From Candidatus Nanoarchaeia archaeon (GTDB taxonomy: Archaea; Nanobdellota; Nanobdellia; SCGC-AAA011-G17; JAGVZF01), in assembly GCA_035288965.1 (NCBI GenBank), contig DATDYQ010000048.1:1-47666 (forward strand): DNA of 47,666 nucleotides. Reading direction: 5' to 3'. The stretch's first letter is position 1, and every line of letters begins with the position of its first letter. Under the pieces are notes generated by a model. The model made no database searches. It had not been told where the DNA came from and saw nothing but the letters and a program-made list of their open reading frames with translations. Shown one piece after another: positions 13,787 to 47,666 of this stretch. Both the position numbers and the translations under genes were made by a program.

Positions 13787-13886
13787 CTATTTTGTAATAT
13801 AGAAAATTAAAACAATATCTTTAAAAATAGTTAATTCTCGTTAATATTAACCCACCTTAGCTCAACGGTAGAGCATTCGGCTGTAG

Positions 13887-13942
13887 ATAAATTCGCTATT
13901 CGACTTTGCTATCAGCAACAGGATGAAAAATAGCCAGCTGAT
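13887..13942 (+). other. tRNA-Tyr intron 1, canonical 37/38 position, ~56 nt (boundary could shift by 1 nt)
   Basis: It separates the anticodon-loop half CTGTAG from the 3' anticodon stem CCGAA (13944-13948). By hand I found only a relaxed BHB. Confidence 0.6.
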
Positions 13943-13958
13943 CCCGAAAGGTTCCCAG

Positions 13959-13989
13959 AAAGCAATTTTTTGCTAAATTGTTTGGGGTA
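13959..13989 (+). other. tRNA-Tyr intron 2, non-canonical position in the T-arm (53/54), 31 nt
   Basis: The central helix is UCCC (13953-56) paired with GGGG (13984-87). The 3-nt bulges are AG|A and UA|U. A 9-bp inner helix pairs 13960-68 with 13975-83. The predicted cuts fall exactly at the exon ends. Confidence 0.7.
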
Positions 13990-14009
13990 TTCAAATCTGG
14001 GAGGTGGGA

Positions 14010-35435: not shown

Positions 35436-35966
35436 TTATTTGAAAATAACTTCTTTAGTGATATCAATGAGTTCTTTACAAATCTTTTTCAAGTTGTTAA
35501 TTTTTGCTTCTTCTTTTACTGAAATCTGTACTCCATAAGTGTAACCCTCTCTTAGATCAATGATACTACTCTCTTTGATATCATCCATCTCTTCATATTC
35601 TAATAGTTCGATAAATTTTTCATCAAGCTGGATTTCATTATTCTCTTTGAGAAATCTTATTAGTGCGATAGTGCATGTCTGATTTGAAGATTCATAACCA
35701 AATTTAGTAGCGATTGCTAGGAAACAATGATAAATGCAATAGAATCCAGCTGATATAGACCAATCGGAAAATCCAATCTCTCTGAATTTTGTTATGCCAT
35801 CTAGGTTATGCTCTGCTTTGACTAGGTGTTTCTTCGCTTCTTTAATACTTGGGTCTATTTTCAACAAACCTCTATGTTTCTCTCTCTTGCCTAATTTTCT
35901 ACAATCTTTAATTTCTTTCTTTGCTTTGCTCAAACACCACTTCACCTGTTTAGAGGCTTGTGACAT
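35436..35966 (-). CDS. HEPN-domain protein (toxin partner of the MNT)
   Basis: 176-aa helical protein, ...AKKHLVKAEHNL...SAGFYCIYHCFLAIATKFG.... It overlaps the upstream nucleotidyltransferase gene by 17 nt. Confidence 0.65.
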   Translation of the reverse strand: MSQASKQVKWCLSKAKKEIKDCRKLGKREKHRGLLKIDPSIKEAKKHLVKAEHNLDGITKFREIGFSDWSISAGFYCIYHCFLAIATKFGYESSNQTCTIALIRFLKENNEIQLDEKFIELLEYEEMDDIKESSIIDLREGYTYGVQISVKEEAKINNLKKICKELIDITKEVIFK

Positions 35967-36540
35967 TTTTCAGTATCTCCACATATATATCCTGACCATA
36001 AATGATAATTGCATTTTTTATTATATCCAAGAAGGCTTTATCTTTCTTTTTAAGATTTTCTAATAAGTCTAAGTGAGTTAATTTGATAGCGTGAAGTTTT
36101 TTAGGAAGTATTTCTTCTTTTTTCTTCAAAACAGTATTTACTTCTTTGACCTCTTTATTTTCTAGTACTATCATTATATCAATATCTTGGGCATGAGCAT
36201 AATCTTTAATTGTAGAGCCAAAAAGCATGACTATTCTGTCTTTCTTAAAGAGTTCTTTAAATTCTTCTTTCCAGCGTTTGAATTTATTTGCTTCGTCTGC
36301 GAGTATGAAAGCAACGAGGTGAGTAACATAATCATTACTAAAATTAAGTTTGTAGATTATGGATTTTCCTATGGTTTTGCTTATTACCAAATTTTCCTGA
36401 AGAAGTCTTTTAAATATCTTCTGAGCACCAACATGGCTGATGTTAAGGATTTTGCTAATGGAATTGGCATTATAAAAATTAGTGTAATCTTTGAATAAGA
36501 TAATTACAGTTTCTCGTTCTTTTTGGGTCAAAGTTATCAT
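35950..36540 (-). CDS. nucleotidyltransferase (MNT-type) with N-terminal winged HTH
   Basis: The wHTH is ISKILNISHVGAQKIFKRLLQENLV. The minimal NTase motif is MLFGSTIKDYAHAQDIDIMIV (GS...DxD). Confidence 0.75.
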   Translation of the reverse strand: MITLTQKERETVIILFKDYTNFYNANSISKILNISHVGAQKIFKRLLQENLVISKTIGKSIIYKLNFSNDYVTHLVAFILADEANKFKRWKEEFKELFKKDRIVMLFGSTIKDYAHAQDIDIMIVLENKEVKEVNTVLKKKEEILPKKLHAIKLTHLDLLENLKKKDKAFLDIIKNAIIIYGQDIYVEILKNVTSL

Positions 36541-39882: not shown

Positions 39883-41787
39883 ATGTGGGAATTTAATAGA
39901 GATAATCACGAAAGACTTGTTGAAAGTGTGTCTAAAATGAGGAATTCTGATATTGTTGAAAATCTGGAATATGAAGAGCCAAAATACACTTCTGCAAAAA
40001 CTGGGGAAATGTTAAATCCAGAGGTTATTGATCTAACTAAAAAGATATATACAAATTTAGACTTGCCTGTCGCTGGATTTAATCAAGGTGGTTTAATATC
40101 TGGAATGGCAATTTGTAAGCAAAGCAGAGCGGAAGATGATGCAAGAGTGATTACGGCTAGAATGATTCAGGGCAATAAAAAATTGAGGAATGCCTTGGAT
40201 AAATTACAGATTCCGGATTATATGTCTGAAATAGGCGGTCCATTTTTTGAAGCTGTTTGGGATGAGTATGGTGATGATTCTGTTGCAAGAAATGTAGATT
40301 TTTCAGCAGTATTTCATGGAGTTTCTATGTTAGAAGCTATGACTTTGTTGCATAATCGGGTTTTGTTTGGAATAGAAAAATCTACAAGGTATGTTGATTA
40401 TAGTGAGAGAAGAAGAGATGGGAATTTTAACTATATTGTTGATCCTTTGATTAAAATGGTAGGATTAGAAAATGATTTTAGAAGAACAACTGATAGATTT
40501 TTTAAGATATATTCTAGAGTTATCAATGATAAAGGGGATAAATATAAAGAATTATTGGGATGGATTGGCAATAATCTACCTTTTGAAAATTTCAAAGAAA
40601 AAGCCCAGGAATCTTTAAAAAGATTGGGCCAAGAATATGCAACAGATGAAGAATTAAAAGAAGGATATAGCAGAACAATAAGCGCTGCTCTTAAAGATCA
40701 AGTAAGACATTTGCTCCCTCTTTCTGCGAGAACAAGTCTTGGCATTATCTTTAATGCTGAAGCTATGCGTCATTTAGTATATCAACAGCAATCTAGATTT
40801 TTTGCTGAAGGAATTATGATAAATGAATTATTTAAAAGAGAGATGAAAAAATTAGTCGGACCTTTATTAGACCATACAGAATATGATGATAAAAGATCTA
40901 TTGAAAGTCGTGATTTCCTTTTTGAAACGAGAAAACCATTAATAGGATATAAAATAAGAGATATTGATTTTAAAGAAGCTGATAGCATAATAAAAAATGA
41001 AAAACTTAAATTAGATGTTTATAGATATGGTGATTTTGTAAAAGTAAATGATTCTAATTTAAATCTAGAAATTATGTTTAATTTAGATGGAAGTTTAGAT
41101 GACCTTATTTCTGCAATATTACGAGAAAAAGTTTCTAATATAACGATTACTCAATCTAATAATGAAGTTAAACATATGTCTAGAGAACAAAAAATAAAAT
41201 TGTTGAATAATTATGCGGGAATTGGACATGATGATTTAAGAAAAAATAGAAGATATAAACCCGGGAGGGCTTTTGAAGTTGTAAGTTTGGATTTAACTAT
41301 GTTAATGCCAATAGCTGAAATAAGGGATATTCGAAGACATACTGTTCCATCTTATCTTGATCCTTTAAATTTTAATCCAGAACTTGGATCTTATATATCT
41401 CCTGGATTAAGAGCAATAGGATTAGAGGGGGATATTCAAAAAGCTAATAAAGAATCAAGCAGTATGTGGTATAGGATTAATGAAAAATGTGGTCCTTATG
41501 CTGCCAGCACTTCATTACCAATGTCGACATTTGGTTCGATGAATACTAAGATTAATTTAAGAGAGGATTTTCATATAAATGAATTAAGAACTCAGACAGG
41601 GGCTGCCCCTGTTTATTTGAGATTATGTCAGATGAAATATGCTGGTTTAAGTGTTTTAATGCCTGAAGTGGCAAGATTGATGAAGTTTGTAAATCAAGAA
41701 ACTGAAATTGACTTTGGAAGATCCATACAGGAAATGCGTTCTATCAAAAAAAGAAAGGAATCTCAAGAGAAAGTAAATATTGCTTAG
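39883..41787 (+). CDS. large ThyX-like (FAD-dependent thymidylate synthase-like) protein, probable fused pseudo-dimer
   Basis: LLHNRVLFGIEKSTRYVDY resembles a degenerate RHRxxSxxxxSxRY ThyX signature. INLREDFHINELRTQTGAAPVYLRLCQM resembles the ThyX C-terminal NLRE..H...LR...AQ.EIR motif. At 634 aa it is over twice the length I recall for a ThyX monomer. Confidence 0.5.
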   Translation: MWEFNRDNHERLVESVSKMRNSDIVENLEYEEPKYTSAKTGEMLNPEVIDLTKKIYTNLDLPVAGFNQGGLISGMAICKQSRAEDDARVITARMIQGNKKLRNALDKLQIPDYMSEIGGPFFEAVWDEYGDDSVARNVDFSAVFHGVSMLEAMTLLHNRVLFGIEKSTRYVDYSERRRDGNFNYIVDPLIKMVGLENDFRRTTDRFFKIYSRVINDKGDKYKELLGWIGNNLPFENFKEKAQESLKRLGQEYATDEELKEGYSRTISAALKDQVRHLLPLSARTSLGIIFNAEAMRHLVYQQQSRFFAEGIMINELFKREMKKLVGPLLDHTEYDDKRSIESRDFLFETRKPLIGYKIRDIDFKEADSIIKNEKLKLDVYRYGDFVKVNDSNLNLEIMFNLDGSLDDLISAILREKVSNITITQSNNEVKHMSREQKIKLLNNYAGIGHDDLRKNRRYKPGRAFEVVSLDLTMLMPIAEIRDIRRHTVPSYLDPLNFNPELGSYISPGLRAIGLEGDIQKANKESSSMWYRINEKCGPYAASTSLPMSTFGSMNTKINLREDFHINELRTQTGAAPVYLRLCQMKYAGLSVLMPEVARLMKFVNQETEIDFGRSIQEMRSIKKRKESQEKVNIA

Positions 41788-42529: not shown

Positions 42530-42559
42530 AGTTATAAAGAAGTAAAGCATTTTTTTTAT

Positions 42560-43048
42560 ATGTTAAAAAAAGAGCAGTATGTTTGGGTGATATTAAGACT
42601 TTTAATGGGATGGACTTTTTTATGGGCTTTTTTTGACAAATTATTTGGATTGGGTTTTGCTACTAAAGCTGATAAAGCATGGATTTTGGGAAATTCTCCC
42701 ACTTATGGATTTTTAAAACTTGGAACTCATGGTCCTTTTGCTTCTTTTTTCCAAAGTTTAGCAGGAAATGTATTTGTTGATTGGCTTTTTATGATGGGAT
42801 TATTATTTTTAGGGATAGCATTCCTTTTTGGAATTGGAGTTAGATTGGCTAGTTATTTGGGAAGCTTATTATTTTTATTAATGTGGCTTGCTTTAATACC
42901 TCCAGCAAACAATCCATTTTTAGATGAGCATATTATTTATATAACAATTTTAATAGGATTATCAACTGTGAAAGCTGGACATTGGTTTGGATTTGGGAAA
43001 TGGTGGGATAAGGGAAAATTAGCAAGGAAATATAGATTTTTACAATAA
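42560..43048 (+). CDS. DoxX-family membrane protein
   Basis: It has four hydrophobic segments, and the N-terminus VILRLLMGWTFLWAFFDKLFG is typical of DoxX/DoxD-like proteins. Confidence 0.6.
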   Translation: MLKKEQYVWVILRLLMGWTFLWAFFDKLFGLGFATKADKAWILGNSPTYGFLKLGTHGPFASFFQSLAGNVFVDWLFMMGLLFLGIAFLFGIGVRLASYLGSLLFLLMWLALIPPANNPFLDEHIIYITILIGLSTVKAGHWFGFGKWWDKGKLARKYRFLQ

Positions 43049-43103
43049 AATTATTTAGCAATTTTCCATTAAGTTTATATATAATAAATGATTTAATTAT
43101 AAT

Positions 43104-44273
43104 ATGAAATATTTCATTATTCTATTAATATTTTCATTACTAATTGTTGTTGGTGGTTGTGTTGAAGAAGGAAATTTCATATCTACTTCTACATACACTC
43201 AAAAAGATTCTGGAATAATAGAGGTAGTACATATTACTAGGGCAGGATATGTAGTGGTGCATGAAAACAATGATGGTGTTCCGGGAGAAGTTTTGGGAGT
43301 TAGTGAATTAATTTATGGCACTAACTATGATATTAAAATTTCAAATAATAAAGAGCCAACTACACCGAGTGTTGTTATTAAGCTTTATTATGATAATGGA
43401 GATTCTGTGTTTGATATTAAGGATGATATTCCAGTAGAATCAAATGGTGCTACAATTATAGTTCCTATAGGTAGTGTTATTCCTAGAGTATTTAATGGGA
43501 GTTTACAACGATTTGAACCATTTAAAGTTGATGCTACAATATTAGATATTTATACCGTATATAAAGGTGGTCTTAAAGAAATGGGTAAAATCAAAATTAA
43601 TAAAATATTAGAACCATGTGGATCATCTGCTTGGAAGTGCAAGACAAAGATGATAGAAGGAGATGTATTGGAAGTTTTTTTTGAGGGAGGTACTAAAGTG
43701 GAAGGTTATTGTCCTCCTGATACAAGTTTAGCACCATGCTCAATGGGTTATGATATTAAAAAAGGAGACGATATGGAAGCAATGATTCAGATTGATATTG
43801 AAGATTCATCATATAAAAGAAATCTTGTTTTTGTGATAAGAGAAATAGAAAAAACAGCTGGAGATGATCAATGCGAGGTGCGAATCACAGGATGCGACCT
43901 ATATTGCGTTGATAAAAAATCTACTTCACCAGCAAATACGCCCAGGGATGCATGTCATTATACTTCTGAATCCTGGTGTAGTTCAACATGTGGAATGAAA
44001 AATAATGTTTGTGATTTTGATCAGAAGTGTGTAAGTTGCGCTAAATCATGTGAAGCAGAAATTGGAGGATTAAATTATTTATCAAACTCAGTAGATATAG
44101 CCAGAATGCAAGGGTGTGTAAAAAACTGCCAAGCTCCATTAACTACATGTGGTAATGGAATATGTGAAAACAATGAGGGTGCAATTGGGTGCGATCCACC
44201 AAATGAAGGTCAAAATCCTTGCGTGGGATATATATTCTGTCCTGAAGATTGTGCAGAAGGAGACTTTCCTTAA
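43104..44273 (+). CDS. putative lipoprotein with Cys-rich C-terminal domain
   Basis: The signal/lipobox is MKYFIILLIFSLLIVVGGC. More than 20 Cys lie in the last ~170 aa. Confidence 0.55.
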   Translation: MKYFIILLIFSLLIVVGGCVEEGNFISTSTYTQKDSGIIEVVHITRAGYVVVHENNDGVPGEVLGVSELIYGTNYDIKISNNKEPTTPSVVIKLYYDNGDSVFDIKDDIPVESNGATIIVPIGSVIPRVFNGSLQRFEPFKVDATILDIYTVYKGGLKEMGKIKINKILEPCGSSAWKCKTKMIEGDVLEVFFEGGTKVEGYCPPDTSLAPCSMGYDIKKGDDMEAMIQIDIEDSSYKRNLVFVIREIEKTAGDDQCEVRITGCDLYCVDKKSTSPANTPRDACHYTSESWCSSTCGMKNNVCDFDQKCVSCAKSCEAEIGGLNYLSNSVDIARMQGCVKNCQAPLTTCGNGICENNEGAIGCDPPNEGQNPCVGYIFCPEDCAEGDFP

Positions 44274-44299
44274 ATTTTTTAAATTACTGATTTTTAAAT

Positions 44300-45019
44300 T
44301 TATTTAGCAATTTTCCATAATAAATTAAATTGTTTTTTATATGTTTCTGCAACTTCTTTATTCTCTATAATTATCAAATAATAAGGCATTGATAAGATAA
44401 ATATTGCAACTTTATTTTTATATATTATTTGAGCTGTTTTTCCTATATAATCTTCTGATAATTGTCTATATTTTAGATTATGATACTTTAACTTTTTACT
44501 TCCTTGTTTAATGATTATTTTTTCTTTTATATGTTTAGTTTGTATAAGGTTAAGATATTGTTTTAGATAGATTGGCTCTACTTCATTTAATAAAGTATTT
44601 TCATCTATTCCGATAAGGTATGCTTCATCGTTTTCTTTTAAAGAAGATATTATATCTTTTATTAAGGTTCTATATACTTTTTGGCCTTTATGAAGTTCTA
44701 CTTTTGTTTCTTCTTTTGTTATTTCCATAATTTTTTTTAAATCCGGGATAATTTTTTGTAAATTTTCTAGCTTTAGTTTAAGAAGTTCTATTAAATTTTC
44801 TGGAGATGTTGCTTGAAAATATTTTTTGTTGTTTTTTAAAATTGAATTGATAAGTTCTTTTTCTTGCATTCTCTCTAAAGCATCATAAATATAACCTCGA
44901 TGTAAGCCTAGTTTTTGTGAAATTTCAGAAGGATTTTGCATTCCCTGTTTTAGTAAAATAAGATAGATTCTAACTTCATTGTCTGTTAGTCCGAGTTCTT
45001 TTAATTGAGATTCGTACAT
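44300..45019 (-). CDS. TrmB-family transcriptional regulator
   Basis: The N-terminus LKELGLTDNEVRIYLILLKQGMQNPSEISQKLGLHRGYIYDALERMQEKELI is a TrmB-type wHTH. Confidence 0.75.
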   Translation of the reverse strand: MYESQLKELGLTDNEVRIYLILLKQGMQNPSEISQKLGLHRGYIYDALERMQEKELINSILKNNKKYFQATSPENLIELLKLKLENLQKIIPDLKKIMEITKEETKVELHKGQKVYRTLIKDIISSLKENDEAYLIGIDENTLLNEVEPIYLKQYLNLIQTKHIKEKIIIKQGSKKLKYHNLKYRQLSEDYIGKTAQIIYKNKVAIFILSMPYYLIIIENKEVAETYKKQFNLLWKIAK

Positions 45020-45133
45020 GCTATTTTATTATGTTTTCTAGTTAATAAATGTTTCGTATTTTAAAGTGCGACAAAAATTTAAATATTCATCTAATATATT
45101 ATAAAGTAATAAATAATAAGGAGAAAAACGAAA

Positions 45134-45487
45134 ATGAACAAAATACAAAAAATAGAAACATTGTGTGCATTGGTTGCATCTCTTAATGGATGTGGTATAA
45201 AACAACCTGAACAAAAAGTAAACTGGAGCAACTTTATGGCAGAAATAGCGAGTAATCAACCTGTAAGAGTTTATGCTCAAAGAGATGGTTCAAGACAATA
45301 TGTTACAGAAATACCTGAAATTGATGGAACATTGGTTGTAATAGATAGAGATAATGATGGTAATCCTGAAATGGAGTACTGTACAAAGAGAGATGGTACT
45401 GGATGGATTAGTCATTATTCGCCTCAAAAATCTAAGAACGATCATCCAAAAAGAGTATCAACTAAATTTTATAACAACAATAAATAA
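45134..45487 (+). CDS. putative small lipoprotein
   Basis: It has a lipobox-like LVASLNGC. No family assignment. Confidence 0.45.
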   Translation: MNKIQKIETLCALVASLNGCGIKQPEQKVNWSNFMAEIASNQPVRVYAQRDGSRQYVTEIPEIDGTLVVIDRDNDGNPEMEYCTKRDGTGWISHYSPQKSKNDHPKRVSTKFYNNNK

Positions 45488-45491
45488 TTTT

Positions 45492-46011: not shown

Positions 46012-47184
46012 ATGAAATTGGTGACAAATATATATGATTTATGTGATAATAAAACAGTAAAAGTTGTATTAAATAATAAGTTAAGAAATTTAATATTAAA
46101 TAAAATAGACAATAAAAAACTAAATCAAATTGCTAAAGAATTAAATATAACATATTCTACATTATGGAAATATATTAATAAAAGGTATTCTGTACCTCTT
46201 GAATTATTTAAGATTTTAAATATAAATTTGCCCAAGAGTATTATTCTTGAAAGTGGTTCAAAAAGAAATAAAGTTAAATTACCCCCTTTATTAACAGAAG
46301 ATTTAGCTAAAATTATAGGTGCTTATGTAGCTGATGGTCATTTAAGAAGAAGAATTACAGTATGGAACGAAAATAAAAATGCTACCCATTATGAATTTGT
46401 TTTAAGAGAAGAATATAAAACAAATGTTGATTCTTTCTGTAGATGGTTTAATAATAGCTTTGGAACAAAAATAGTTCCTATAAAAAGGAAAAATCATTAT
46501 GAAGTTTATGTAAGTAATAAGATCATTTTCTTATATTTAACCAGAATATTAAGATTATTAACTGGAAAAAAGGTAAATATTATAGATATTCCAGAATATA
46601 TCAAAGATTCTAGTAAAAATATTCAAATTTCTTTTTTGAAAGGCCTTTTTATGTTTGATGGTGGTGTTGATTATAGAAATGGTTATGTAACGTTGATATC
46701 AAAAAGTGAAAGGTTGATAAATAGTGTTCATCAAATTCTAAATAATCTTGGTATGAGTTCACATTATTGTTCTAGAAAACAAGATAAATTTGGGAGATAT
46801 AGAATATTGATTAGAGATCGGGAAAGTTTGAAAAAATCTTTAATTTTATTTGAAAAAAATACTGAGAAATGGCATAGACTTCATGAAAATTTATATGGAT
46901 TTAAATATAATAAAATTCAAAAACTAGACACCTTTTTATATAAATTAAATAAATATTATCCAAAAAAGAGAAAATCTTCTATAAACTTCAACGACGTAAT
47001 TTTGGTAGTAAATGGATTAGATGAGGCAAATTTTAAAGATATTTCTTTAAAATTATCAAGAAAAAAGACAGTTGTATATGAATTTCTTAATAAATTAAAA
47101 AGATGGAAAATTTTAAAAAATAAACAGAAAGGTTTAAATAAGGTTTGGATGATTCAAAATAATCTACCAATTATAAGGAGGTAA
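46012..47184 (+). CDS. free-standing double-motif LAGLIDADG endonuclease-like protein with N-terminal HTH
   Basis: Two LAGLIDADG motifs: LAKIIGAYVADGHL and ISFLKGLFMFDGGV. The HTH is LNQIAKELNITYSTLWKYI. The ORF-track start at 45958 is a TTG, and ATG 46012 lies ~25 nt after a TATA-like tttataaag. Confidence 0.75.
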   Translation: MKLVTNIYDLCDNKTVKVVLNNKLRNLILNKIDNKKLNQIAKELNITYSTLWKYINKRYSVPLELFKILNINLPKSIILESGSKRNKVKLPPLLTEDLAKIIGAYVADGHLRRRITVWNENKNATHYEFVLREEYKTNVDSFCRWFNNSFGTKIVPIKRKNHYEVYVSNKIIFLYLTRILRLLTGKKVNIIDIPEYIKDSSKNIQISFLKGLFMFDGGVDYRNGYVTLISKSERLINSVHQILNNLGMSSHYCSRKQDKFGRYRILIRDRESLKKSLILFEKNTEKWHRLHENLYGFKYNKIQKLDTFLYKLNKYYPKKRKSSINFNDVILVVNGLDEANFKDISLKLSRKKTVVYEFLNKLKRWKILKNKQKGLNKVWMIQNNLPIIRR

Positions 47185-47189
47185 CCTAT

Positions 47190-47666
47190 TTGGCGGACAT
47201 ATTAACAGACAAAGTTAGGATATTACAAAAACAACCAGAACATATAAGGAACATCGCTATTTGTGCCCATATCGATATCCTTTAAGATACAACTTCTTAA
47301 GGACGAATGCATGGAAAAACAACATTTAGCGATAGTCTTTTAGCAGGAGCAGGGATGATAAGCGAAGAGTTAGCTGGAAAACAACTAGCTTTAGATTTTC
47401 ATGAAGATGAGATTGCAAGAGGAATAACAATAGATGCTGCTAATGTTTCTATGGTGCATAATGTAGAAGGACAAGATTTTTTAATAAACTTAATTGATAC
47501 TCCAGGACATGTTGATTTTGGAGGTGATGTAACAAGAGCAATGAGAGCTGTTGATGGAGCTATTGTTTTAGTTGATGCTGTTGAAGGAATGATGCCACAA
47601 ACAGAAACTGTTTTACGTCAAGCTTTAAGAGAAAGAGTTAAGCCGGTTTTATTTATTAATAAAGTT
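47190..47666 (+). CDS. fusA: elongation factor 2 (aEF-2), 5' part, interrupted by a 33-nt stop-containing insertion in the P-loop codons; runs off the window
   Basis: A TTG start follows AGGAGGT by 7 nt. The translation is [28 protein letters not shown], then a 33-nt insert with two TAA stops, then [41 protein letters not shown]...DTPGHVDF... Confidence 0.85.
47277..47309 (+). other. candidate BHB-type mRNA intron inside fusA
   Basis: Removing exactly these 33 nt restores AHIDHGKTT. Flanking and internal pairings give an outer helix, a 3-nt bulge, a central helix, a 3-nt bulge and an inner helix (details in findings). Confidence 0.65.

Follow-up and report, generated by a model that had tools for sequence, protein, structure and literature searches.

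The window analysed here, the whole stretch of 47,666 nucleotides (nt) of contig DATDYQ010000048.1 from a Candidatus Nanoarchaeia archaeon, ends within the gene for translation elongation factor 2 (EF-2, fusA), and the P-loop codons of this gene are interrupted by a 33-nt insert at 47277-47309. It is highly likely that this insert represents a mini-intron of the bulge-helix-bulge (BHB) type in the EF-2 pre-mRNA of a DPANN archaeon of the Woesearchaeota/Pacearchaeota type. An initial annotation of the window had proposed a candidate BHB intron at this place, and the proposal is backed by the register of the predicted cuts, by the agreement of several assemblies, by an otherwise intact gene, by covariation within a family of similar inserts and by a tRNA-Tyr gene of the same window. 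Beyond that annotation, the insert belongs to a multi-site family, a LAGLIDADG gene is linked to it, and some relatives carry an intein at the same spot. Judged from gene sequences, the inserts are very probably a real, previously undescribed intron family in a protein-coding gene.

The start of the EF-2 gene and its interruption comprise the following features.

47177-47181, + strand: Shine-Dalgarno-like GGAGG, 8 nt 5' of a TTG and within the final codons of the LAGLIDADG gene
47190-47276, + strand: EF-2 exon 1 (29 codons), with 80-88% identity to the N-termini of intronless EF-2
47277-47309, + strand: predicted BHB mini-intron of 33 nt, site-33 class (AHID/HGKTT), between the Asp and His codons
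47283-47285, + strand: in-frame TAA, the third intron codon; a second TAA lies at 47298-47300
47310-47666, + strand: EF-2 exon 2, which runs off the window end; the gene continues beyond

The GGAGG supports the TTG at 47190 as the EF-2 start codon. The insert has the sequence ATCCTTTAAGATACAACTTCTTAAGGACGAATG, and the unspliced frame from the TTG encodes 29 residues, then IL*DTTS*GRM, then 20 residues to the window end. Exact removal of the insert yields AHIDHGKTT, the GTP-binding G1/P-loop motif, whereas a deletion displaced by a single base in either direction loses the motif and reads ...EH... or ...DNG... instead; the assertion that deleting precisely 47277-47309 recreates the G1 motif therefore holds, and holds for this register only. 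The stop codons inside the insert mean that it must be removed from the RNA. Inteins are in-frame, stop-free inserts with splicing blocks (Cys1 ... HN, +1 nucleophile), and an intein at 47277-47309 was ruled out by the two in-frame TAA codons. The ribozyme core of group I and group II introns spans hundreds of nucleotides, and a self-splicing intron of either kind was likewise rejected, the insert having only 33 nt and Rfam searches (gathering threshold, and E up to 0.5) returning nothing.

A BHB motif consists of two 3-nt bulges on opposite strands with a 4-bp helix between them, and is cut after the second nucleotide of each bulge. The corresponding elements around the insert are listed below in order of position.

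47267-47270, + strand: outer helix h, 5' strand CCAU, pairing with 47311-47314; columns 85% paired among 35 site-33 relatives
47271-47274, + strand: central helix H, exon strand AUCG, of which UCG pairs with 47304-47306 and A47271 is mismatched
47275-47277, + strand: bulge 1, AU/A, left unpaired by the minimum-energy fold; predicted 5' cut after 47276
47278-47303, + strand: inner hairpin h', with 5 bp, a bulged U, 3 bp and a 9-nt loop
47304-47307, + strand: central helix H, intron strand CGAA, with pairs U47272-A47306, C47273-G47305 and G47274-C47304 and an A47271.A47307 mismatch
47308-47310, + strand: bulge 2, UG/C, predicted 3' cut after 47309
47311-47314, + strand: outer helix h, 3' strand AUGG (h = 4 bp)

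Each of the outer, central and inner pairings and both bulges listed by the initial annotation were recovered by motif scoring (H = 3/4, h = 4, h' = 5). The two bulges and the central helix are present in a relaxed form, with three Watson-Crick pairs plus A.A, and are flanked by helices of 4 bp (h) and of 5+3 bp with one bulged U (h'). The predicted cuts, at 47276/77 and 47309/10, are exactly the boundaries required by the EF-2 protein, in agreement with what had been claimed. BHB-like shapes alone are common: of the ~5.2 million (i,j) pairs of positions on the window's + strand, 322 carry a motif of equal quality. One pre-specified boundary pair would be hit by such a motif with a probability of ~6e-5. 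When the window was screened without further constraints for BHB motifs whose excision would fuse two long open reading frames (ORFs), the search returned 744 hits, mostly joins of neighbouring genes, and was set aside as too unspecific.

When the spliced N-terminus was compared with genomic sequences, 79 of the 80 best relatives proved to have an intact P-loop, whilst in the remaining one (L005) the Lys codon of GKT, 7 nt downstream of the site used in the window, holds an insert of 30 nt with a perfect AUGG/CCAU central helix and cuts that obey the same rule. A DNA pattern scan (IRNI ... LL.GAGM[MI], with 12-42 extra nt between the anchors) gave 42 matches in species-representative genomes, 37 of these being DPANN EF-2 genes, and 74 matches in metagenomes. 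The combined scans yielded 80 distinct inserts of 21-37 nt in DPANN EF-2 P-loop DNA. With positions numbered from the first base of the IRNI codons, the insertion sites are 27 (H/I), 29 (AT/A of Ile), 33 (D/H) and 39-41 (Lys codon); site 33 is the largest class and includes the insert of the window. Lengths not divisible by 3 (44/80) and in-frame stops on read-through (80/80, L087-L202 set) make these inserts untranslatable. The universal stops may have been selected, in that unspliced mRNA would give a short peptide, or may be a by-product of the recurrent UUAAG/UUAG of the hairpin.

The register of these inserts was tested by scoring as BHB any boundary pair with at least 3/4 central pairs and an inner helix of at least 3 bp. 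All 28 loci with a unique, protein-dictated boundary fit at offset 0, and at most one of the 28 fits at each of twelve other offsets between -6 and +6. When the best of the protein-compatible boundaries was taken at all loci, 78/80 fit the BHB rule, and the central helix is present in the unconstrained fold at 62/80. The 'site 4' solution for L170 and that for L116 (H = 2) are probably spurious or atypical. Three further EF-2-like genes (L103, L161 and L166) have 29-33 extra nt in the P-loop region for which the boundary solver found no solution; two of these, L103 and L161, read SHVHHG...KKTT with 33 extra nt, and may represent a further insertion site or a divergent paralogue.

The nearest relative of the window, L215, shares 95% identity in the C-terminal 576 EF-2 residues (DNA ~90%) and has a site-33 intron with a different 30-nt sequence, in which the differences within the hairpin are compensatory (C-G to U-G or U-A; A-U to G-C). 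The distribution of the introns is nonetheless patchy, as neighbours of the EF-2 N-terminus at 92-93% identity include site-33, site-40 and intronless genes. In an intron-blind sample, retrieved with residues 150-724 as the query, a mini-intron was present in 7 of 77 usable relatives, a base rate of ~10%.

Covariation was assessed in alignments anchored solely on the protein-derived boundaries, with loops removed and no gaps needed; where several boundaries were compatible with the protein, which was always at site 29, the best-fitting one was chosen. At site 33 (35 sequences), 85% of cells are paired, as against 30-46% with the 3' partner slid by 1-3 columns, and the covariation score is 0.43 against 0.05-0.13 for the slid controls, with 0/500 shuffles reaching the observed value. 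The score at site 29 is 0.42, and across the two sites the slid controls do not exceed 0.135. All eight inner-helix pairs at site 33 vary on both sides, one of them being AU in 10 sequences, GC in 9, UA in 9, CG in 3, GU in 2 and UG in 2. The pairing also extends across the predicted splice boundary: the third base of the Ile codon and its intron partner (columns 8/30) form C-G in 29 of the sequences and U-A in the other 6, a synonymous exon change from ATC to ATT thus being matched by an intron change from G to A. The first central pair is missing in 20 of the 35 site-33 relatives, so that three pairs and a mismatch are typical of this class, whilst the other 15 have 4/4 pairs. In the 25 sequences of site 29, pairing in the central helix reaches 98%, by CG/UG/UA and GC/GU/CG/UA types.

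The choice of exon codons follows the same geometry. The site-33 genes use GCC (30/38), CAT (37/38), ATC (32/38), GAT (38/38) and, for the second His, CAT (36/38), as compared with 19, 81, 34, 73 and 61, respectively, among 138 distinct intronless alleles; site 29 favours GCG, ATA and CAC, and site 40 favours GGA and AAG. In each class, the class-specific synonymous bias falls on the bases that the BHB geometry requires.

From this structure we infer the enzymes involved and the reaction in vivo. In the pre-mRNA, exon AUCG would pair with intron CGA(A) and exon CCAU with exon AUGG, the intron core forming a hairpin, and the fold would display one 3-nt bulge on each strand, with 4 bp between them. 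Each bulge would be cut after its second base by the tRNA-splicing endonuclease (EndA), and an RtcB-type ligase would join the exons to give GAU/CAU and thereby AHIDHGKTT, the predicted spliced junction being GCCCATATCGAT/CATGGAAAAACAACATT. The 33-nt intron would be released, probably in circular form, with a predicted circle junction of ...AAGGACGAATG/ATCCTTTAAG.... Ribosomes on unspliced RNA would halt at the TAA in the third intron codon, leaving a 31-residue peptide and not a P-loop-defective EF-2.

A tRNA gene of the window provides a control for this rule.

13851-14009, + strand: tRNA-Tyr(GUA) gene with two BHB introns, resolved by hand

Neither ARAGORN nor Rfam, the latter at the gathering threshold and at E up to 0.5, detected the gene in its unspliced form. 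Intron 1 (13887-13942, 56 nt) lies at position 37/38 with H = 3 and h = 5, and intron 2 (13959-13989, 31 nt) lies in the T-arm at position 53/54 with H = 4, h' = 9 and no outer helix. Removal of both by the same rule leaves a 72-nt product that ARAGORN identifies as tRNA-Tyr(GTA); intron 2 thus obeys the rule as the initial annotation had stated, and intron 1 does likewise. It follows from intron 2 that the organism must process a relaxed BHB intron of ~30 nt at a non-canonical place. The EndA of Pacearchaeota and Woesearchaeota has an extra loop, L3, that is associated with disrupted tRNA genes (PMC5829648), and it is this literature, together with the intron-bearing tRNA-Tyr gene, that argues for the presence of EndA and RtcB in the host.

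Several observations weigh against a BHB intron that is spliced by the tRNA machinery. The central helix of the window insert has only 3/4 pairs, and the outer helix at site 29 is weak, with 45% of cells paired. Of the fold that had been described as near-canonical, the unconstrained minimum-energy fold (-12.0 kcal/mol, z = -2.4) retains the inner hairpin, the central helix and bulge 1; the outer helix faces competition, as CCAU/AUGG is there exchanged for an outer UUUGUGC/GCAUGGA pairing, the BHB structure with the CCAU/AUGG helix having -8.2 kcal/mol. These relaxed motifs, with 3/4 central pairs, a competing outer helix and weak outer pairing at site 29, would therefore need an enzyme of broad specificity. 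Searches of the window and of 2 Mb of related DNA detected neither an EndA nor an RtcB gene; for EndA in the related DNA, where an M. jannaschii EndA sequence served as the query, this null is uninformative. The exact spliced 724-amino acid (aa) EF-2 is absent from a 15-billion-protein collection, which therefore offers neither direct evidence of splicing nor an intronless allele. Finally, a divergent second EF-2 could be encoded elsewhere, the genome being in view only in part.

The relaxed motif, in particular the 3/4 central pairs here and the weak outer helix at site 29, could also indicate a real RNA-level intron that is removed by another structure-specific RNase and a ligase in place of EndA. 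We consider this unlikely, as the geometry and cut register are exactly of the EndA type in 78/80 loci, both tRNA-Tyr introns of the same genome are resolved by the same rule, and no Rfam match, including to self-splicing introns, was obtained. A ribozyme is itself unlikely, since an intron of 21-37 nt is far too small.

Less probable still is translational bypassing, in which the insert stays in the mRNA and the ribosome hops over it, as in phage T4 gene 60 and the mitochondrial 'byp' elements. The short inserts (21-37 nt), their hairpin and the stop that follows soon after the last sense codon bear a superficial resemblance to such elements. Bypassing requires a landing codon that matches the take-off codon, which here would be GAU, whereas the final insert triplet is AUG in the window and is never GAY in the 38 site-33 relatives, where UUA, AUA, GUG, CAG, GUU, UUU and AUG occur. 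Sites 29 and 40 lie within a codon, a break that no simple hop could mend. At their 3' end the inserts have a conserved element (CGAU, CGAG, CAAU) that is complementary rather than identical to the exon and covaries with synonymous exon changes, and so argues for base pairing rather than landing.

The EF-2 copy of the window might instead be a pseudogene, with a second, intact fusA active elsewhere, and the gene callers do report only shortened products: the public calls (P0121, P0122) are of 696 aa from the ATG at 47307, within the intron, and of 680 aa from the ATG at 47355, and neither contains the first half of the P-loop. Against this, the insert is the sole lesion in 724 codons. The spliced EF-2, assembled from locus L081, has 724 aa, its residues 1-723 align without gaps to the intronless EF-2 of L001 at 71% identity, and the diphthamide motif HEDAIHRG is retained. 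The gene also occupies its conserved position, the gene order on longer contigs being S12 - (ThyX) - S7 - ... - EF-2 - (787-aa ORF) - EF-1α - ... - S10. No near-identical intact N-terminus was found among 5.8 billion proteins, the top match being 88% identical, and when accession lists were compared no metagenome-assembled genome (MAG) was common to the intron-bearing set and the 80 best intact loci. A comparison of orthologous EF-2 genes in related MAGs, which had been recommended as a check, yielded both the gap-free intronless orthologue and many relatives with analogous inserts. Decay would not be expected to produce covarying inserts at BHB-compatible boundaries in at least 80 lineages, nor does it fit with the nearest relative, L215, keeping a diverged intron with compensatory changes at the same site. 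We therefore regard a pseudogene as very improbable. Metagenome assemblies do contain errors, which is the only prior for an assembly or sequencing artefact, and this can be considered excluded because independent assemblies agree: a neighbouring protein encoded in the window is present on 13 public contigs, all six contigs retrieved (five ENA assemblies and one JGI metagenome, from different samples and assemblers) have the window's exact sequence over the 200 nt surrounding the insert, and analogous inserts occur in dozens of other species.

The gene immediately upstream of EF-2 encodes a free-standing LAGLIDADG protein.

46012-47184, + strand: double-motif LAGLIDADG gene of 390 aa, counted from ATG 46012 in an ORF open from 45958

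Its end and the EF-2 start are 5 nt apart. The protein matches Pfam PF14528 (E = 6e-12), is most similar among solved structures to PI-PkoII, an intein endonuclease (E = 6e-11), and has additional regions at both the N- and the C-terminus. In all 13 distinct homologues (34-67% identity) the predicted catalytic Asp of the motifs LAKIIGAYVADGHL and FLKGLFMFDGGV is conserved, with ...ADGH... and ...MFDG... kept in 13/13. A derivation of this free-standing endonuclease from the EF-2 intein was considered and found no support, the two sharing 26% identity over 205 aa, which is no closer than PI-PkoII.

Where 1.4 kb or more of upstream sequence was available, and with each distinct locus counted once, an endonuclease homologue lies directly upstream of EF-2 in 16 of 57 intron-bearing loci as against 1 of 72 intronless ones (Fisher p = 6e-6, for loci that are related lineages and not independent events), and the single intronless case is an 81-aa remnant. 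The converse search, beginning from the endonuclease, found that 12/12 homologues in species-representative genomes adjoin EF-2, and that 11 of these 12 EF-2 genes have a P-loop mini-intron, compared with the base rate of ~10%.

Inteins occupy the same stretch in other relatives. Seven members of the intron-blind sample read ...VYDFT...HNF[IV]AEG..IHN/TTFSD, an intein C-terminal junction with Thr at +1, immediately before the remainder of EF-2. Full inteins of 476-522 aa, reading Cys1 ... HN/Thr and with a LAGLIDADG domain of their own, were found in L220, L221, L277 and L292, whilst only the C-terminal HN/T junction was seen in L223, L241 and L285. This intein lies at position 42, between the K and T of GKT, in Woesearchaeota and Nanoarchaeota, and no mention of an EF-2 intein was found in the literature searched, which included a survey of intein sites. 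At least four BHB intron positions and one intein thus fall within 16 nt of DNA (nt 27-42), a clustering that gives the EF-2 P-loop the appearance of a homing-endonuclease target; the EF-1α P-loop (GHVDHGKST) is intact in 101/101 loci.

It is plausible, if tentative, that the intron belongs to an arms race of homing endonucleases over the EF-2 P-loop DNA. The upstream LAGLIDADG enzyme would probably cut intronless EF-2 P-loop DNA, and the intron, ~90 nt away, would break the target and shield its own genome, in the manner of the 'collaborative homing' of phage psbA. With slightly more reserve, the BHB mini-introns of DPANN EF-2 may be viewed in general as RNA-removable 'target-site breakers' against homing endonucleases, where the attack would come from a free-standing LAGLIDADG enzyme at sites 27-33, with enzymes encoded by inteins possibly acting at sites 39-41, beside the intein site at 42.

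Besides the relatedness of the loci compared above, other points weigh against this homing layer. Most intron-bearing loci, including L215, are without the endonuclease gene, and the gene is never found at site-40 loci. Endonuclease clades are not sorted by intron site, as the proteins of L202 (site 33) and L183 (site 29) are 67% identical. Furthermore, one locus (L214 = L279, JASFEO010000001.1) combines an endonuclease homologue (residues 6-290) with an intronless EF-2. The P-loop codons of L214, GCG CAT ATT GAC CAC GGG AAA, may be a resistant synonymous variant, or the enzyme may be inactive. At L215, a BtpA-like ORF on the opposite strand stands in place of the endonuclease gene.

The homing proposal can be compared with three known systems. 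In cyanophages, a free-standing endonuclease cuts the intronless psbA allele and an ORF-less intron protects the genome that carries it (PMC6083498). As in psbA, the endonuclease gene at EF-2 is outside the intron and adjoins the interrupted gene, the intron has no ORF, and in the proposed logic the intron would block self-cleavage and travel along when the endonuclease homes. The psbA intron, however, is a group I self-splicing ribozyme paired with an Endo VII-type enzyme, and cleavage of the intronless allele has been demonstrated, whereas the EF-2 case involves a ~30-nt, putatively protein-spliced BHB intron and a LAGLIDADG protein known from genes alone, and the endonuclease gene is missing at most intron-bearing loci. 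The BHB introns of archaeal rRNA encode LAGLIDADG homing endonucleases such as I-DmoI (PMC2602781, PMC4496867), and thus share with EF-2 the association of a BHB intron with such an enzyme at a highly conserved site of an essential gene; there the ORF is inside a long intron, whilst in EF-2 it is upstream of the gene and the intron is a minimal one in coding sequence. Inteins are known in the P-loops of ATPases and GTPases (PMC4760082) and are, like the EF-2 introns, mobile elements that use the same kind of ultra-conserved site, although inteins leave at the protein level and the EF-2 insert must leave at the RNA level.

Other features of the window and its gene cluster were also recorded. 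The ORF between S12 and S7 (39883-41787, + strand) encodes 634 aa, ~3x the usual length of ThyX, and only residues 115-299 match ThyX (Thy1), the remainder being without explanation. Relative to L215, the str cluster of the window has an extra block (42535-45491) with DoxX-like, DUF7282 and TrmB-like genes and a small ORF, and the 787-aa ORF between EF-2 and EF-1α (L081, 4075-6438), which has no Pfam match, is likewise extra. On the - strand, at 35436-36540, adjacent ORFs with a HEPN domain and a nucleotidyltransferase domain lie between the NusA-like KH and GMP synthase genes; this adjacency is the usual arrangement of HEPN/MNT toxin-antitoxin systems.

A BHB intron in crenarchaeal cbf5 pre-mRNA was reportedly described by Watanabe in 2002 and Yoshinari in 2006. 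This intron of Crenarchaeota is also documented by Yokobori 2009 (PMC2738675), and the literature searched, up to 2025, cites the cbf5 studies alone for archaeal pre-mRNA BHB introns (PMC5829648, PMC12397907, PMC2738675), in keeping with the assertion of the initial annotation that such introns are known for very few genes. No report of an EF-2 intron, or of a BHB intron in a DPANN protein-coding gene, was found in the literature searched, which did not cover subscription-only papers. Both cbf5 and EF-2 are protein-coding genes with a short intron bordered by a (relaxed) BHB, both introns are patchily distributed among relatives, which implies gain and loss, and in both removal is attributed to the tRNA-splicing endonuclease. 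Unlike cbf5, the EF-2 gene is cut in its catalytic P-loop, has at least four insertion sites within 15 nt as against one, and is accompanied by a linked LAGLIDADG gene and, in relatives, by an intein at the same site. The EF-2 hosts are DPANN, for which an α4-type EndA with the L3 loop has been reported and not the crenarchaeal heterotetramer (PMC5829648), and splicing of cbf5 has been shown experimentally, whereas the EF-2 intron is known from sequence. In size, geometry and cut register the EF-2 introns equal the non-canonical mini-introns of archaeal tRNAs (hBHBh', HBh'), a kind to which tRNA-Tyr intron 2 of the window (31 nt, 53/54) belongs; the EF-2 introns differ from these in that the host RNA is an mRNA and the exon bases of the helices are also under coding constraint. 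The mechanism is thus of a known class, whereas the gene, the lineage, the arrangement over several sites and the connection with homing elements are new.

Genome completeness and phylogeny are routinely assessed with EF-2 as a marker, and since gene callers shorten it the annotation of DPANN MAGs is affected; the shortened calls could distort both completeness estimates and phylogenies of DPANN genomes. EF-2 would be the second gene with an archaeal pre-mRNA BHB intron, and would be an essential translocase of another superphylum, interrupted in at least 80 lineages and at several sites. If this is true, splicing of mRNA by the tRNA machinery would be recurrent in DPANN and not a crenarchaeal curiosity, and these organisms would need EndA and RtcB activity to make EF-2 and, with it, to translate at all. 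The linked LAGLIDADG gene and the same-site intein provide a testable model for the origin and spread of the introns. Should the homing proposal be correct, Archaea would gain their first known example of collaborative homing, and immunity would for the first time be seen to come from a tRNA-type intron spliced by proteins in place of a ribozyme. Such a system would also offer a concrete route by which BHB introns may enter protein-coding genes.

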